From: a virus
Lineage: Duplodnaviria > Caudoviricetes
Reading direction: 5' to 3' (one strand)
Virus record (IMG/VR): IMGVR_UViG_3300012682_000006
Location: 1-52,421 of that record
DNA: 52,421 nucleotides
Of this stretch, positions 20,655 through 31,401 are shown in pieces. The translations under genes and the position numbers were made by a program. How positions within the stretch are numbered: position 1 is the first letter of the stretch; every line of letters begins with the position of its first letter. The notes beneath the pieces were generated by a model. It ran no database searches. It worked only from the letters and a program-made list of their open reading frames with translations, and was not told the origin of the DNA.

Positions 20655-22523
20655 CTACGACTTGGCAGCGCCCCAGTTGTCGACCACGGACGTGTTGGCC
20701 ACGAGCGGGACTCCGTTCAACTCATACGCACCTTCCATTGCCTCCGTCATCATCTTGGCACCCTCGTCGGCCAACTCCTCAGGCACGAGCGCACCCATCT
20801 CGTCGTGCACCGTGAAGACGAGTCGCATGCGGGGATCGTGCACCTCGATGGCGTCGAGGAACCTCACCATGGCGATCTTCATGATGTCGGCGGCCGAGCC
20901 CTGGATGATGGCGTTGATGGCCTGGCGCTCGGCCGCTCGACGTGCGCCCTGCTGCGTGGCGAGGAGGGCGGGCAGGCGCCGCTTGCGCCCGAGCAGGGTC
21001 TGCGTGTGCGGGGGCCGACGTGAGCGGGCATCCTGCAGCGTCTTGGTCTGCCACGGCATGACCTTGACGTACGTGGCGTAGAAGGCGTCGATGAGCATCT
21101 GGCCCTCCTTCTCGTTCTTGACGCCGTACTTGAGCACGAGGGTCCCGGGTGTCACGCCGAACGTCACGGAGAAGTTCACGTTCTTGGCCAGCCCACGCTC
21201 CTCGGGTGTCGGGTTCTCCGTGTGGTAGGCGGTCTTCGCCGTCATCATGTGGAGGTCGAGGCCCTGGGTGTATGCGCCCACGAGCAGCGGGTCCTGCGTG
21301 AAGTGGGCGAGCACCCGCAACTCGATCTGGCTGAAGTCCGAGACCACGTACACGTACCCGGGCGGGGCGGGGAAGAGGTTGCGAACCTGCTTGCCCTCGT
21401 CCGTACGCACAGGGATGTTCTGAAGGTTGATTTCGTTGGACGACCAACGGCCTGTGACGGTGCCGACTTGGTTGAACCTCGTGTAGACCCGCCCGTCCGT
21501 GTGGATGTGGTTCCGCAGGCCCGTGACGAACGTGCCCTTCAACTTCGACGTGCCGGTCCAGGCGAGCATGTCGGCCACGAGCGGGTCTTTCTTGGCCAGC
21601 GGCTCGAACGCACCGGCCGCCGTGCTCGGCTTCTTCGTCTTGTCGGTGAAGAGCACGGGCTTGTGGCCGAGCACGCCGTACACGAACTTGCCCTTGGCGA
21701 TCGGGGCGTCGAGGTTGAACTCCGCACCGTTGGCCTCGAAGATCCGGTCCTGCAGAGTGTTGAGGCGCTGCGTCATCTCGACGTCGAGGCGCTCGACCTG
21801 CTCTCGATCGACGGGAGCGCCCGTGAGTTCCATGTGCACGACCGTGCGCATCACGTCCATCTCCAGCCGGTAGAGACCGGCGAGTCGCTGGGCGTTGAGG
21901 ATCTTCTTCAACTTGCACCAGAGGAGCCACGTGTACTTGGCGTCGAGGTAGGCGTAGCGGGCCACTTCCCTGAACGGGAAGGTCTCCGGCCCCTTCTTGC
22001 CGACGCCCTTGTCGTACAAGAAGCCGAAGTGCCTCTGCGTGATGGCGCCGAGGTTGTAGACGTGGAGGTTCTCGTTCAGCACGTGCTGGGCGACCATCGT
22101 GCATGCGTAAGGACCGATCGGCGGCTCGCCGTCGTAGTACTTGGCCATCGTCTCGATGTCGAAGCGCAGGTTGTGCCCGACCTTGCGAGCGTCGTTGAAG
22201 AAGAGCGGCTCCAGCACGGGGAAGACCTCGGACCGCCACAGTTGCTCGGGTCCAGTGGGGTGGCCGACCGGGATCGTGTCACAGCGGCCGGGGCCAGCAA
22301 ACGAGAGCCAGATCACCTCGTTGGTGAGGACGTCGACCGCTGGCTTGTCCTTGGGGTACCGCTTGGCCCGGGTCCCGACCGTCTCCAGGTCGAACGCCCA
22401 CTCGGGCTGATCCTGGTACCAGGCGACCATCTCCCGCAGCGCAGGCATCGTGAGGATCGGCGATCCCGTCTCGTGCCGGGACTGCAGCACGTACGGGGGC
22501 TCGACCTTCTTGGCTGCTGCCAC
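20655..22523 (-). CDS. polA: family A DNA polymerase with 3'-5' exonuclease
   Basis: DLET, HNLRFD, YAYLD; TGRWSS..NLQN, DFSQIELR, RxxxKxxNF, HDE; AGGAG RBS before GTG 22523. Confidence 0.95.
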   Translation of the reverse strand: MAAAKKVEPPYVLQSRHETGSPILTMPALREMVAWYQDQPEWAFDLETVGTRAKRYPKDKPAVDVLTNEVIWLSFAGPGRCDTIPVGHPTGPEQLWRSEVFPVLEPLFFNDARKVGHNLRFDIETMAKYYDGEPPIGPYACTMVAQHVLNENLHVYNLGAITQRHFGFLYDKGVGKKGPETFPFREVARYAYLDAKYTWLLWCKLKKILNAQRLAGLYRLEMDVMRTVVHMELTGAPVDREQVERLDVEMTQRLNTLQDRIFEANGAEFNLDAPIAKGKFVYGVLGHKPVLFTDKTKKPSTAAGAFEPLAKKDPLVADMLAWTGTSKLKGTFVTGLRNHIHTDGRVYTRFNQVGTVTGRWSSNEINLQNIPVRTDEGKQVRNLFPAPPGYVYVVSDFSQIELRVLAHFTQDPLLVGAYTQGLDLHMMTAKTAYHTENPTPEERGLAKNVNFSVTFGVTPGTLVLKYGVKNEKEGQMLIDAFYATYVKVMPWQTKTLQDARSRRPPHTQTLLGRKRRLPALLATQQGARRAAERQAINAIIQGSAADIMKIAMVRFLDAIEVHDPRMRLVFTVHDEMGALVPEELADEGAKMMTEAMEGAYELNGVPLVANTSVVDNWGAAKS

Positions 22524-22547
22524 TGCGTCTCCTGGCTGGTGGGTCGG

Positions 22548-22590
22548 TGGTGCCCGCCCCGGGAGTCGAACCCGGAACATCCGCTACTTA
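22548..22590 (-). tRNA. 3' part (positions 34-76) of split tRNA, probably Leu(UAA)
   Basis: TAAGT AGCGG ATGTT CCGGG TTCGACT CCCGG GGCGGGC A CCA. Confidence 0.85.
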
Positions 22591-23039
22591 CGGCGACGGC
22601 AGAAGGTGGGGTTCTGAGCGTCGCAGTTCGGACAGAGCAGGCGTAGGTTCTCTATTCGATTATCTCGGTTGTCACCGTTGGTGTGATCAAGACGTAGCAC
22701 TAGCGGTTGGCCACGCCACTCAGTGATGCCACACCAAGCGCACGCATACGTCAGCAGACCCGCATCCAAGAGGCGCTTCTTCAAGCCCCCTCGGTACTTG
22801 CTGTCCTTGACGAGGATCTCATCAAGCGTTGGCATCGGCCCGTGGAACTGTCTGACCATGCCCTTGCTCCACCGCTGGCCGACCAAGTGCTCTGTGGAAA
22901 GATCAAGCCGCTCAGCAGTAAGGGCCACCGTCTTGTAGTTGCCTCCCGTCGGACGAAGCCCAAGGTGGCGCAGCACACCGGCAACCGATGTTGCCGACGC
23001 CAGCCCCACCTTGAACTCCTCGTCCGTCCACCTCTTCAT
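22584..23039 (-). CDS. HNH endonuclease inside the tRNA anticodon loop
   Basis: VLRHLGLRPTGGNY...CAWCG...LDHTNGDNRDNRIENLRLLCPNC; stop codon lies in the tRNA 3' part. Confidence 0.9.
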   Translation of the reverse strand: MKRWTDEEFKVGLASATSVAGVLRHLGLRPTGGNYKTVALTAERLDLSTEHLVGQRWSKGMVRQFHGPMPTLDEILVKDSKYRGGLKKRLLDAGLLTYACAWCGITEWRGQPLVLRLDHTNGDNRDNRIENLRLLCPNCDAQNPTFCRRRK

Positions 23040-23060
23040 GGTAGAAGTGTAACCTCTCCG
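22591..23060 (-). mobile_element. 470-nt intron-like insertion in tRNA
   Basis: removal regenerates a 76-nt cloverleaf. Confidence 0.75.
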
Positions 23061-23093
23061 AAGGCGGCGCCTCTGCCGTTGGGCTAGGCGGGC
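23061..23093 (-). tRNA. 5' part (positions 1-33) of split tRNA
   Basis: GCCCGCC TA GCCCAACGGCAGAGGC G CCGCC TT; acceptor stem 7/7 complementary to the 3' part. Confidence 0.85.
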
Positions 23094-23112
23094 GTGGCAC
23101 AGGAGCCCCGTG

Positions 23113-23140
23113 AGAGGCCCCTGTGCGTCGATCTCAGGCC
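23113..23140 (-). repeat. dispersed repeat, copy 4
   Basis: GGCCTGAGATCGACGCACAGGGGCCTCT. Confidence 0.7.
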
Positions 23141-23421
23141 TCCGGGGCGTCCTCGGGGGCAATCTCCCTCAGAGCGCCGCCCAGACCGTGGTAGAGCGCC
23201 AGGGCGGATGCGGGATCGAGCACGCAGGCCTGCGTCATCATCGGCGCCAGGATCGTGCCGTACCCGATCCCGAACGTGAGCCGGATGGACGGGTTGTCGG
23301 TGTCGATCGTCTCGATCGAGAACCCGAACCTCGGAACATCGGCGTCACCCTGGTCGTACGGGGGGTCGCTCGGCTCCACATGGACGGGGACCTGCACGGG
23401 GATGTCAGTCATCGCCGCCAC
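23134..23421 (-). CDS. hypothetical protein
   Basis: GC3 bias; start may be 23412. Confidence 0.65.
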   Translation of the reverse strand: MAAMTDIPVQVPVHVEPSDPPYDQGDADVPRFGFSIETIDTDNPSIRLTFGIGYGTILAPMMTQACVLDPASALALYHGLGGALREIAPEDAPEA

Positions 23422-24211
23422 CGGCCTGCTCTGCGACCTCGGCCAACTCGGACCGGGAGTGCGTGTAGATCGCCTTGGCCGTGAGGACGTTGGCCTCGGC
23501 CTTCTCGATCTGGTCGTCCGTGAGGGGAGAGATCTCCCAGTCCTCCTCCAGGTCCCGTTCCTTCACGGGGTGGAACGAGGTGATCGTCTTCTTCTGGCGG
23601 CCCTGGCCCTTCACCTCCTTCGTGATGACCCAGTACAGGTCGTCCCGGTTGATGGGGCTCGACGCCTTCTTGGCAGAGAGGTTGGCGATCGCCGAAGCGG
23701 CCGTGATGCGGAGAAGGATGTAGAGGTTCTTCCGCTGCTGCAGGTGGAAGATGTTGAAGCCCGAGATCACGGCGACGTCGTTGCCGATGTCGCAGAGCGG
23801 GCAGTCGTCGCCGACGCACACCCACGACTTCTTGCTTCCCTGCGGGAGCCCCTCGACCCAGTGCTGCTTGTACGTGACGAAGGGACCCTCGTCGAGGAAC
23901 TTCACGACCGTGTCGCCCTCGGGGATCTTGAACTCCTCGCCGAACTGCGACGGGACCTCCGCCTTCGTCTTCTCGAAGCCGTCCCACCCGCCGCTGAGCA
24001 CGGGGCGGTCGGACTCATCGGCGTCGTCGTCCGACGTGGCGGCCCTGCGGCTGCGGCGAGGCGTGTCCTCGTCGGCGGCCTCCTCCCGGCGGGAGCGGCG
24101 GGGCTTCTCCTGCTCGGGCTCGAAGTCGGCGTCCTCGTTCTCGTACTTCGAGGAGGTGGTGGGAGCGGCGGGTGCCGGGCGGCGGCGGACCTTGCGGGTG
24201 GTGTCGGTCAT
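23405..24211 (-). CDS. gp32-like single-stranded DNA-binding protein
   Basis: KFLDEGPF..Y.QHW...CVGDDCPLC; position next to polA. Confidence 0.75.
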   Translation of the reverse strand: MTDTTRKVRRRPAPAAPTTSSKYENEDADFEPEQEKPRRSRREEAADEDTPRRSRRAATSDDDADESDRPVLSGGWDGFEKTKAEVPSQFGEEFKIPEGDTVVKFLDEGPFVTYKQHWVEGLPQGSKKSWVCVGDDCPLCDIGNDVAVISGFNIFHLQQRKNLYILLRITAASAIANLSAKKASSPINRDDLYWVITKEVKGQGRQKKTITSFHPVKERDLEEDWEISPLTDDQIEKAEANVLTAKAIYTHSRSELAEVAEQAGGGDD

Positions 24212-28937: not shown

Positions 28938-31277
28938 TCAGACACTCGTGGCGTCGAGGAACTCGGTCAGGGTGGTGGCGTCCAACTTCAACTCGCCCTG
29001 CTTGTCGATGCCCCGCCCGTCCATGACGGCGCTGGCGATCGAGCGCTTGCGCTCCAGCATCTCGTACTGGCGCTCCTCAATCGAGCCCCGCATCATCATG
29101 TTGATCAGGGTGACGGACTCGAACTCGGTCGAGAGCCGGATGATCCGTGCGTTGCGCTGGTCCATCTTCCCGGCGCTCCACGGGAGGTCGTAGTTGATGA
29201 GGTAGTTGGCGTTCGGGAGGTCGAGACCCGTGCCCCCGGCGTCGCTCGACAGGAACAGCCTGCAGTTGTGTACAACTACACTCTCAGCAAGAAAGATCCC
29301 GGATGACGTGTGGAGGTTATAGACGTGAAGGGAAGAGACAGCACTGTCGACGCTGAGGACCTCATCGCCGACTACCTCGAAGGAGCCACAGTCGCCGACC
29401 TCATGGCAAAGCACTCCGCCGGGTTCCGTAAGGTCCAGCGCCTGTTGACCGAGAGCGGTATCGAGATCAGGCCCCGGTCGAGTTACGCCACCGACATGAG
29501 AAACGCTCACGCCGCTGCCCGAGGGCGTGTAATGGGTGAGTCCACGAAGGTGAAGCGGGCTGCGACCGTCGAACGTCTGGCGCAAGGGCGTCTCCCCACC
29601 AGCGTTGGAGAGCGGGACTTCATCAACCTTGTCACTCCCCTGCTTTCCGAACAGCCGATCCCTCAGAAGATGATCCACTACTACAACGTCGACTTCGCTT
29701 TGGAAAGCCCCCGCATCGCCGTGGAAGTCACCGGGTTTGGTGGATCGACTCGTGCTCGATCCAACCGCCAAAGCCGCATCGAAGAGTTGCTCCGCCGTGA
29801 GTGGTGCGTCCTGGAAGTCATGGCCCGTAGAAGCCCGGTCACCCCTGCGCTGGCGGAATACCTCATCACCTGGACGAAGGTCCGATGCGGGCAGCCACCC
29901 TCGCCGAGTGAGCACCGGGTGGTTTGCGGTAACGGAGAGCCCTACCCCCGACGCCGTAGCCGCCGTGACCACCTCCCCCTGGTACAGCGCACGGGTGACC
30001 GCTAGGAGATCCCCGACCGACTCGACGTAGGTAGACCCCACCACGCACTCGGGGTCGGTGTCGAAGGTCTGCTTCGCTGCGTCCTTCTGCTTGGCGTTCA
30101 TGTCGCCCGTGTAGATCACGCTCTTGGTGAGGGCGGACGTGGCGTCCTTCAAGAGCCCGAGCGTGCTCTTGAAGAACGAGAACAGCACGACCTTGTTGCG
30201 TGGATCGGCCGACAGGATGTCCTCGATCAACTCCAACGTGGCTTCCATCTTCGGCGCCTGCAGGGTTGCCTTCAGCACGCCCGCCGCCTTCAGTTCGCTG
30301 GCGTACTTCGAGCCGGTCGTGAGCGTGTCGTCGTCGAACGCCTTGGCGCTGAGGCGAAGGAGTTCCGGGTGATCACACAGCATGCGCAGGCACGTGAGCC
30401 TGGCCATGATCTTCCCCTGCTGCTGCATCTCCTCCTTGCTCCGGCCCTCGCCCGAGTAGTGCTTGTAGACGTCGAACGATCCCGACACGACGTTGGCGAG
30501 TTCGACCTGCAAGTCCTTGGCGATCTTGCGGTAGAGCGTGCGGCCGGGCGTGTCAAACGAAACGAGCACCACCTCCTCGGACACCTTCGGCATCTGGTCC
30601 CGGACGTCAGGGTCCTGCCGGGTCTTGCGCACCATGGCGGCAGAGACCTTCTTGTGCAGGGTCGGGAGGTTCTTGTAGCGCAGCACGGCGCCGTACCCGT
30701 TGCGCACGATGAACGACATGTCGAAGATGTCGAAGCGCCCGAGCACGACGGGGTCAACCCACTCCATGACAGAGAACAACTCCTCGGGCACGTTCTCCAC
30801 AGGCTGGCCGCTCAGGCCCCACTGGTAGCGGGCTCGCATCTTCTTGATGCGCTTGGTCCGCAGGGACTTGAAGCCCTTGATGGCGGTGACCTCGTCGCAC
30901 ACGATGAAGTCCCGAGGCAGGTCCCGCACGATCGCCCAATCGTTGACGACCTGCTCGTAGTTCATGATCGTGTACTCGATCTCGCCGTTCAGAACCTGCT
31001 GGTACAGGGCCTTGCGCTTCTCGGGGCCGCCGTCGATCACGAGCGAGATGGCGCCGTCGGTGAACTTGGCGATCTGTCGCTCCCACTGGTACTTCAGGGT
31101 CGCTGGCACGATGATGAGACCGCCCCCAACCTCACCAGACTCGATGAGGCGCTCAACTGCAGCAATCGTCAGGATTGTCTTCCCTAGCCCCATGTGAAAC
31201 GCCACGAGCAGGCGCTTCTGATTGACCATGCGGTCGACCGCTTCTTCTTGGAACGGACGCAGTTCACCGAGGAACAT
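28938..31277 (-). CDS. SNF2-family helicase, intein-containing
   Basis: MGLGKT, CDE, LSGQPVEN, SSDAGGTGLDL, QRNARI.R. Confidence 0.95.
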   Translation of the reverse strand: MFLGELRPFQEEAVDRMVNQKRLLVAFHMGLGKTILTIAAVERLIESGEVGGGLIIVPATLKYQWERQIAKFTDGAISLVIDGGPEKRKALYQQVLNGEIEYTIMNYEQVVNDWAIVRDLPRDFIVCDEVTAIKGFKSLRTKRIKKMRARYQWGLSGQPVENVPEELFSVMEWVDPVVLGRFDIFDMSFIVRNGYGAVLRYKNLPTLHKKVSAAMVRKTRQDPDVRDQMPKVSEEVVLVSFDTPGRTLYRKIAKDLQVELANVVSGSFDVYKHYSGEGRSKEEMQQQGKIMARLTCLRMLCDHPELLRLSAKAFDDDTLTTGSKYASELKAAGVLKATLQAPKMEATLELIEDILSADPRNKVVLFSFFKSTLGLLKDATSALTKSVIYTGDMNAKQKDAAKQTFDTDPECVVGSTYVESVGDLLAVTRALYQGEVVTAATASGVGLSVTANHPVLTRRGWLPASDLRPGDEVFRQRRGDRASTGHDFQDAPLTAEQLFDAALAVGSSTSRSTKPGDFHGDAGAFQSEVDVVVVDHLLRDRLFGKQGSDKVDEVPLSNAGGETPLRQTFDGRSPLHLRGLTHYTPSGSGVSVSHVGGVTRPGPDLDTALGQQALDLTEPGGVLCHEVGDCGSFEVVGDEVLSVDSAVSSLHVYNLHTSSGIFLAESVVVHNCRLFLSSDAGGTGLDLPNANYLINYDLPWSAGKMDQRNARIIRLSTEFESVTLINMMMRGSIEERQYEMLERKRSIASAVMDGRGIDKQGELKLDATTLTEFLDATSV
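29265..30047 (-). mobile_element. intein (261 aa) in SNF2 helicase
   Basis: starts CVVGST, block B TANHPV, block F VYNL, ends VHN followed by Cys; removal gives FDTDPE/CRLFLSSDAGG. Confidence 0.92.
29325..30005 (+). CDS. antisense HTH/NUMOD3-like/DUF559-Vsr-like endonuclease nested in the intein
   Basis: GGAGGT 7 nt before GTG; YLEGATV..L...VQRLL..SGIEIR, GRVMGESTKVK, S..E...PQ....YNVDFA....IAVEV.G...L...W.VL.V. Confidence 0.8.
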   Translation: MKGRDSTVDAEDLIADYLEGATVADLMAKHSAGFRKVQRLLTESGIEIRPRSSYATDMRNAHAAARGRVMGESTKVKRAATVERLAQGRLPTSVGERDFINLVTPLLSEQPIPQKMIHYYNVDFALESPRIAVEVTGFGGSTRARSNRQSRIEELLRREWCVLEVMARRSPVTPALAEYLITWTKVRCGQPPSPSEHRVVCGNGEPYPRRRSRRDHLPLVQRTGDR

Positions 31278-31401
31278 CGGGCTCCAGCGGGAACTCGGTG
31301 TGGCACTTCCTGCACTCACGCCATCCGGGCGTCTCATCGTCTCCGGGAAACTGCACGACGAGATCGAGATGGCACTGCGGGCACTGCTTCAGCGGGGTCA
31401 T
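31264..31401 (-). CDS. small Zn-ribbon protein (45 aa)
   Basis: CPQC...CRKC; TGATG coupling. Confidence 0.55.
   Translation of the reverse strand: MTPLKQCPQCHLDLVVQFPGDDETPGWRECRKCHTEFPLEPDVPR

Follow-up and report, generated by a model that had tools for sequence, protein, structure and literature searches.

What becomes of a phage tRNA gene once an endonuclease gene lies within its anticodon loop: is the insert an intron that leaves the transcript, or is the tRNA lost? The question is raised by the IMG/VR virus record IMGVR_UViG_3300012682_000006 (Duplodnaviria; Caudoviricetes), a linear sequence of 52,421 nt with 65% G+C, ∼53% complete by CheckV, which was analysed in its entirety and is referred to here as the window. 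On its minus strand, two halves of a tRNA gene (22548-23093) enclose an open reading frame (ORF) for an HNH homing endonuclease. A first-pass annotation, made from the letters of the sequence, had offered three readings of this locus: a minimal tRNA intron spliced in trans or by proteins, a tRNA assembled from halves, or a recent disruptive insertion. The last is favoured here by alleles with and without a homologous insertion in Staphylococcus and Enterococcus phages, while no support was obtained for the other two; with a probability of about 0.78, the locus is a ribozyme-less HNH homing-endonuclease insertion in the anticodon loop, inactivating a dispensable phage tRNA.

Anatomy of the split tRNA gene

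When the 470-nt insert (22591..23060) is left out, 33 nt and 43 nt of the minus strand join into a 76-nt cloverleaf, as the first-pass annotation had proposed, and the details it gave of the acceptor stem, T arm, CCA, G37 and C31-A39 all hold on re-reading of the sequence. The 5′ half (23061..23093, minus strand; tRNA positions 1-33) comprises the 5′ strand of the acceptor stem, the D arm, the 5′ strand of the anticodon stem, U32 and U33; the 3′ half (22548..22590, minus strand; positions 34-76) continues with UAA, G37, U38 and the 3′ strand of the anticodon stem, followed by the variable loop ATGTT, the T arm, the 3′ acceptor strand, A73 and an encoded CCA. The acceptor stem (GCCCGCC/GGCGGGC) is paired at 7/7 positions, the T arm (CCGGG-TTCGACT-CCCGG) is perfect, and the anticodon stem (CCGCC/AGCGG) carries a single C31-A39 mismatch. 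In the predicted fold of the whole 546-nt transcript, the acceptor stem is closed in the minimum-energy structure (z = -3.05).

The make-up of the insert also agrees with the earlier description. A 21-nt putative leader (23040..23060, minus strand), delimited by reading the letters, precedes an HNH ORF of 151 aa plus TAG (22584..23039, minus strand; ATG 23039, TAG 22586-22584), the last codon and stop of which fall in the 3′ anticodon arm, at tRNA positions 35-40. Within the leader, a purine run (GGAGAGG) lies 13 nt upstream of the ATG and the hexamer TACACT 6 nt upstream; the hexamer had been suggested to be a promoter and is present where it was placed, but a promoter scan did not call it.

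Gene finders see the locus only in part. Default ARAGORN reports 0 tRNAs in the whole window, and its intron mode returns one split tRNA at the locus, with a 469-nt intron and a slightly different 77-nt fold. When the halves were joined by coordinates, a 76-nt tRNA was called at 7/8 junction choices, one of the eight leading to an unassigned tRNA; the anticodon reads TAA with the junction after U33 and CAA with the junction after nucleotide 34, as the first-pass annotation had stated, then CGA, then CGG. A crude split-tRNA rule (T arm, 7-bp acceptor, U8, gap of 300-1000) matches the window once, at this site, against an average of 0.85 matches in shuffles (n = 20), and by itself is weak evidence; the split tRNA is taken to be real because a full cloverleaf, exact flanking of the ORF and homology to a family of tRNAs coincide.

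Absence of a ribozyme core

The claim that the insert holds no ribozyme core stood up to model-based search. The Rfam model Intron_gpI gave no match at E <= 10 in either 22300-23400 (1,101 nt) or 22540-23100 (561 nt), and across the whole window no Rfam match, group I included, reached the gathering score. The lack of a group I match in the insert is meaningful because the same model finds the cores of two intron-borne relatives of the HNH gene, those at loci L030 (56.1 bits) and L038 (45.8 bits); short stretches were needed for this, as Rfam searches of whole loci at E <= 0.1 missed both. With the tRNA models, the locus yielded at E <= 10 only a 13.8-bit tRNA-Sec match (E 9.4). Boundaries resembling those of group I introns had also been described, and the letters are indeed there, with a 5-bp P1-like pairing possible between GCCUU and GAGGU and a G at the end of the insert, but both features are within chance.

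Cofolding of the two junctions produced no bulge-helix-bulge, taken as two 3-nt bulges a 4-bp helix apart at the exon-intron junctions, and gave only an imperfect rod with 1-2-nt bulges. The first-pass annotation had further pointed to the rest of the genome as a possible source of RtcB, an RNA ligase or a group I ribozyme. None of these turned up in the record: no RtcB, RNA_ligase or tRNA_int_endo is present in the 52 kb, a weak negative given its ∼53% completeness, and no RtcB, RNA ligase or splicing endonuclease was found among the 20 large ORFs scanned with Pfam.

An HNH clade tied to tRNA-Leu genes

The HNH protein matches phrog_10822 (E 5.9e-41) and scores 24.2 bits against Pfam HNH_3, just below the cut-off of 24.8; over its full length, and with no extra sequence, it can be aligned to HNH genes that stand free in phages, at 35-47% identity. 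The alignment shows no variation at C100, C103, H119, N131, C136 and C139, which supply two CxxC pairs together with the motif's H and N. At the third motif residue the protein has D (CPNCD in place of CPNCH, an H-N-D variant), just as had been noticed, where 9/9 aligned homologues have H. Among 80 viral relatives this residue is H in 68 (plus 4 readable in tails), D in 3, N in 3 and unresolved in 2, and judged from these sequences D is a recurrent variant. The composition of the ORF is foreign to the phage genome, with a GC3 of 0.71 vs 0.89 to 0.94 in three adjoining genes, and with CTT used for 7/21 Leu codons vs 46/830 in 38 other genes. For the Enterococcus homologue, the depositor's label is F-TflIV.

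The genomic surroundings of the clade were compared in the 80 best of 572 viral relatives and the 80 best of 587 bacterial relatives (L numbers denote individual loci), tRNAs being counted within 1.2 kb. The phrog_10822 HNH clade is tightly linked to tRNA genes, above all tRNA-Leu: a tRNA lies within this distance in 75/80 of the viral and 60/80 of the bacterial loci, the commonest neighbour in viral loci being tRNA-Leu(taa) (44), with Leu(tag) at 13 and Leu(caa) at 8, and the bacterial loci showing 36, 12 and 5, respectively. In 24/80 viral loci a tRNA starts between -40 and +20 nt of the ORF stop. Annotated phages show the same arrangement, with HNH homologues inside tRNA clusters and their stops abutting or overlapping the next tRNA; examples are Rhodococcus phage Francesca, Gordonia phage GodonK, a Variovorax phage, Pseudomonas Pakpunavirus, Enterococcus Schiekvirus and Escherichia Suspvirus. 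Intron-mode calls that joined halves of two intact neighbouring tRNAs were discarded as chimeras (L004, L007, L008, L011, L072, L077, L089 and L092). Earlier reports describe homing-endonuclease genes in phage tRNA clusters (PMC2330249) and a conserved HNH gene ahead of tRNA arrays in bacteria (PMC8421152).

Several unusual RNA genes were met in these surroundings. On a viral contig of 69% G+C (L023:1626-1697), a 72-nt tRNA with the amber-reading anticodon CUA, labelled 'Pyl' by ARAGORN, starts 9 nt ahead of the HNH ORF stop. At positions 943-1019 of both L064 and L068, the ARAGORN call is a tRNA of 77 nt whose anticodon has four bases (gtaa); this tRNA adjoins tRNA-Leu(taa) upstream of the HNH gene. 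The tRNA region of Enterococcus phage Bop contains a ROOL RNA (L009:2485-3071, 260 bits), and a tmRNA gene (L038:277-649, 126 bits) stands upstream of an intron-bearing tRNA-Leu on a viral contig.

Occupied and empty tRNA genes

Members of the clade occur in a series of positions relative to the tRNA gene. The majority of loci have the HNH gene free-standing beside an intact tRNA. At three loci on Patescibacteria metagenome-assembled genome (MAG) contigs, a 5′ tRNA-Leu remnant (∼positions 1-27) lies ∼60 nt upstream of the HNH gene (L165 ∼1120-1145; L171 ∼1120-1150; L148 ∼1120-1145), and a complete tRNA-Leu(UAA) starts at the HNH ORF stop; the remnants align with scores of 16-20 vs shuffle maxima of 9-11. 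From its sequence, this arrangement looks like an anticodon-arm insertion that brought with it a replacement for the displaced part of the gene, by which the host retains a working tRNA. The mirror image, a 3′ tRNA remnant downstream of the HNH gene where the complete tRNA is upstream, was not clearly present in any of the 12 top-ranking loci out of 59; where a score did exceed the shuffle maxima, as in a few instances, the stretch was T-arm-like or belonged to a tRNA already known nearby (L092, L019, L076).

In two further loci, both IMG/VR contigs with viral status as recorded there, the HNH gene resides in a true group I intron of a class II tRNA-Leu(UAA), inserted at nucleotides 34/35: 776 nt in L030 (501-1359) and 713 nt in L038 (1107-1907), each comprising the HNH ORF and then a group I core of ∼200 nt. 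Intron-sized interruptions in L121, L125, L128, L139 and L162 are candidates for the same state. A 2014 review places all phage introns then known in protein-coding genes (PMC3984707), and the intron-bearing tRNA-Leu genes of L030 and L038 are noteworthy for that reason. L038 was also picked out by the split-tRNA rule when this was applied to 90 loci including the window.

Finally, the HNH gene is found naked, that is, with no intron around it, in the anticodon arm of the window tRNA and at L019, L010 and L009. At L019 (1089-1758), a split class-I tRNA(UAA) encloses the HNH ORF together with a complete class-I tRNA(UAA) at 1644-1717, and a third class-I tRNA(UAA) copy follows at 2156-2229. In two phage groups the empty site is preserved in close relatives. 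Staphylococcus phage vB_ScoM-YCP carries a 512-nt insert after nucleotide 34 of tRNA-Trp, in place of 7 nt, with the ORF taking its stop from the tRNA-Trp variable loop; phage ISP and many other Kayviruses have flanks 100% identical to those of vB_ScoM-YCP and an intact tRNA-Trp. Four records cover at least 80% of the occupied query, and the empty alleles, near-identical records among those listed, match ∼43% of it in two pieces. In Enterococcus phage Bop, a 768-nt insert stands in place of 14 nt (positions 28-41) of tRNA-Gln, which is intact in EFGrKN and other Schiekviruses; 2 records are occupied. Neither the Staphylococcus (tRNA-Trp) nor the Enterococcus (tRNA-Gln) insertion gave a group I match, and because anticodon-arm nucleotides have been deleted, neither tRNA could be restored by splicing. 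In both, a member of this enzyme family has simply disrupted a tRNA gene, and at the same part of it.

Two bacterial MAG contigs hold further candidates, a tRNA-Arg(CCU) (L146:1004-1830) and a tRNA-Ser(UGA) (L156:1118-1904) apparently split by HNH-containing inserts of ∼700-750 nt, both found by ARAGORN intron mode as well as by the acceptor/T-arm rule.

Identity of the tRNA and position of the junction

Bacterial tRNA-Leu is normally a class II tRNA with a long variable arm, and the first-pass annotation had remarked on the 5-nt variable loop as atypical. The loop is indeed short, but shortness is the norm among HNH-linked tRNAs of 74-76 nt with Leu anticodons. It is these class-I tRNAs, abutting HNH relatives in phages (e.g. 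GodonK) and Actinomycetota (e.g. Pseudonocardia), that provide the closest comparison: the window D-arm stretch equals that of the 76-nt Leu(UAG) tRNA at L110 over 18/18 nt (counted by eye), and the differences in the acceptor and T stems from HNH-linked Leu tRNAs are paired changes. Anticodon loops in the family read TTTAGGT (L161, L111, L102) or TTTAAGC (L115), and that of the window TT-TAAGT, the dash marking the insert. Since 4 of the 5 loop letters that the 3′ half supplies (5/7 of the loop) match this family, the loop is probably genuine, and there is a good likelihood that U33 and U34 are the nucleotides directly flanking the insertion. In that case the anticodon would read UAA, or CAA if the junction were one nucleotide later.

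Two other interpretations of the 3′ half were set aside. A tRNA-Gln or tRNA-Pro(CGG) that had lost its anticodon was dropped, the HNH-adjoining class-I Leu tRNAs being closer; in BLAST searches the best phage matches of the 3′ half are actinophage tRNA-Gln genes (82-85%), and those of the 5′ half are mostly non-tRNA mycobacteriophage DNA. An origin of positions 38-40 from the ORF is less likely, being outweighed by the loop match to the family; the 12-aa tail of the ORF after CPNC is of typical length and would suit a stop native to the ORF.

The class-I Leu-anticodon tRNAs form a recognisable set in their own right (L099, L102-L104, L106, L109-L111 and L161 from Actinomycetota; L006 from GodonK; L019; L070; L074), being 74-76 nt long with anticodons UAG, CAA, UAA or CAG, sharing a D-arm signature and often abutting the HNH stop. 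Uninterrupted members pass the Rfam tRNA model, as exemplified by three at L019 (50.6-60.3 bits).

Origin of the locus and competing explanations

A homing cycle would account for these observations. The enzyme would recognise the DNA of Leu-anticodon-type tRNA genes around the anticodon arm and cut alleles that lack the HNH gene; repair of the break from an occupied allele would copy the gene in, the tRNA halves acting as homology arms, and the insertion would destroy the enzyme's own target. With no ribozyme, the transcript would be unable to restore the tRNA, leaving the halves as a recently inactivated tRNA gene, and read-through transcription of the minus-strand operon probably supplies the mRNA from which the HNH is translated. 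Bacteria need their tRNA-Leu, and in them the clade adjoins the gene, follows a duplicated remnant or is housed within a ribozyme; phages can do without the tRNA, and there the HNH gene can sit naked. For the window phage, loss of a UUR reader would be cheap because, among 11,310 codons, TTA is used once and TTG 92 times. A recent arrival is suggested by the foreign codon usage and by halves that are still intact, and the window tRNA is most likely dead.

Several considerations weigh against this account. No HNH-less relative of the window phage was found among phages, viral contigs or metagenomes, so that the empty site is unseen in its own lineage, where homing is proposed. The D at the third HNH position leaves the activity of the enzyme in doubt. 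The halves are undecayed beyond the C31-A39 mismatch and still encode CCA, which suits recent insertion and equally suits continued selection on them. The junction looks precise, as in introns, in contrast to the nucleotides lost in the verified cases, and the missing part of the genome, or the host, could hold splicing or ligation genes or an intact copy of the tRNA.

Other explanations were considered. Were the insert to leave the transcript with no ribozyme of its own to excise it, a working Leu-type tRNA could result, either through host or phage nucleases acting at a structured junction, for instance in the extended anticodon rod, together with a ligase (e.g. RtcB) or through a trans-acting ribozyme from elsewhere; both the outcome and these routes are very unlikely. 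The apparently precise junction and the intact halves with their CCA would be expected under such processing, the transcript fold closes the acceptor stem, and the insert ends can prolong the anticodon stem as an imperfect rod. Recency of insertion makes RNA-level removal unnecessary as an account of why the halves are intact, why CCA is encoded and why the U33/U34 junction is apparently exact, and does not explain these features away. Set against removal are the missing bulge-helix-bulge, the lack of RtcB, RNA ligase or splicing endonuclease in the incomplete record and of any group I RNA in its 52 kb, and the deletion of the anticodon arm in both homologous cases with known empty sites; to our knowledge, protein-dependent tRNA splicing is not known in bacteria or their phages. 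If it did occur, the window insert and other precise naked insertions such as L019 would represent the first ribozyme-free tRNA introns in bacteria or phages. The prospect that a novel or highly divergent self-splicing core is hidden in the HNH coding sequence is remote: the exon ends in U and the insert in G, the P1-like pairing is available and the fold energy is somewhat under that of shuffles, but Rfam is blank at E <= 10 on 561 nt when the cores of intron-borne relatives are found, the ∼200-nt core of those relatives follows the ORF where the window ORF enters the exon and leaves no such segment, and the ORF aligns with free-standing homologues over its full length with nothing to spare.

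A different role for the halves, also unlikely, is that they were retained as a tRNA-like frame serving the endonuclease or downstream polymerase gene and not to make tRNA; in that role, equally unlikely, the frame would act as a regulator or as a scaffold by which the HNH mRNA is processed or stabilised (RNase P, 3′ end processing). The abutting or overlapping of ORF stop and next tRNA in free-standing relatives (the 24/80 viral loci) is consistent with this, as is the closing of the transcript by the acceptor stem in the predicted fold, and in the T4 segB paper, cleavage of the endonuclease mRNA at its stop by tRNA processing is proposed to limit expression (PMC2330249). Recency is nevertheless the simplest reading of halves that remain intact, and in the verified naked insertions the anticodon arm has not been conserved. 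As for mis-assembly, the record derives from one metagenome; its sequence is listed for a single DNA sequencing run, which may be the source sample, and for no RNA run, and a second contig of the same run (389 nt) matches two short parts of the HNH gene; the likelihood that a chimera joined the HNH gene into the tRNA is nonetheless close to negligible, as a single contig with even word depth (16.4) covers 21800-23900, including both junctions, with no differences and no alternative joints, and the same architecture occurs in isolated, completely sequenced phages. Disruptive insertion by a homing endonuclease remains the preferred explanation.

Genomic context of the window

Downstream of the locus, a family A DNA polymerase gene (20655..22523, minus strand; DNA_pol_A, E 6e-99) with a 3′-5′ exonuclease domain begins 24 nt past the 3′ tRNA half, its start being likely GTG 22523, with AGGAG ahead of it. 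A sigma-70-like promoter match, a consensus match only, lies in the 3′ part of the HNH ORF (22659..22687, minus strand) and agrees at 9/12 positions, with 0.1 expected in shuffles. Upstream, the minus-strand neighbour is a 95-aa ORF ending at 23134, separated by ∼40 nt from the tRNA 5′ half; a G+C-rich hairpin with no T run, seen by eye between the two (23097-23126, minus strand), was not called by a terminator scan.

Other genes of the window include RecA, a DnaB-like helicase, an SNF2 helicase, baseplate J and a lysozyme-like domain. The phage has no close relative in the collections searched: its polymerase is at most 34% identical to that of any phage record, a protein search found no relative in viral contigs, and a search of metagenome contigs found two loci only, at 30% identity. 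By blastn against phages, the sole match of the locus is 77 nt of the HNH gene in one Gordonia phage. In the SNF2-family helicase (28938-31337, minus strand), the N- and C-terminal helicase domains are ∼365 aa apart, and residues 444-691 give a weak Intein_splicing match (E 5e-4, below the cut-off), which may reflect an intein and thereby a second selfish element in the replication module.

Significance and comparison with known systems

Neither the occurrence of endonuclease genes in tRNA clusters nor that of group I introns in the anticodon loops of tRNAs is new; no report of an HNH gene naked in a phage tRNA anticodon loop was found in the literature searched, which left out supplements and most subscription journals. 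Homing-endonuclease genes are thought to survive in essential genes only if hidden by an intron or intein, and the main interest of the window feature lies mostly in the comparative series to which it belongs. A single clade tied to tRNA-Leu shows the whole series, beside the tRNA, behind a remnant, in a group I intron and naked, and so offers a natural data set on how endonuclease genes and tRNA introns come together. From the series it can also be told which of the interrupted tRNA annotations in phages are dead genes. In practice, default tRNA finders miss such genes, and pipelines may report an over-long 'HNH' ORF running through a tRNA half.

Known systems share single features with the locus. 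Split tRNAs occur in Nanoarchaeum, and archaeal tRNA introns are of the bulge-helix-bulge type; split and intron-bearing archaeal tRNAs resemble the window in halves that pair through the acceptor stem, but the window locus lacks such a motif, no splicing endonuclease was found in the incomplete record, and the setting is that of a bacterial-type phage. Group I introns of tRNA-Leu(UAA) interrupt the same type of gene at nearly the same site (34/35 vs 33/34 in the window), yet they carry a catalytic core, unlike the window insert, which has none and no apparent route to a mature tRNA. Fractured genes likewise consist of a host gene in two co-linear pieces around an endonuclease gene; the homing endonuclease gene that splits them is reported to be free-standing, and split inteins to restore their function (PMC2677866). 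Such genes rejoin at the protein level, whereas no rejoining device is visible at the window locus.

Further parallels are the nuclease genes that accompany tRNA genes in bacteria and phages. The HNH genes of bacterial tRNA arrays share the linkage of HNH and tRNA and have been proposed to spread the arrays, but they stand upstream of the arrays where the window HNH stands inside a tRNA (PMC8421152). SegB of T4 is, like the window HNH, a selfish nuclease gene among phage tRNA genes; SegB is reported to recognise an element that is conserved among tRNA genes and to cut inside such genes, and its ORF reaches as far as the next tRNA, while T5 carries F-Tfl endonuclease ORFs (PMC2330249). SegB and F-Tfl genes lie between intact tRNA genes, whereas the window HNH has settled inside one tRNA gene, in its anticodon loop.

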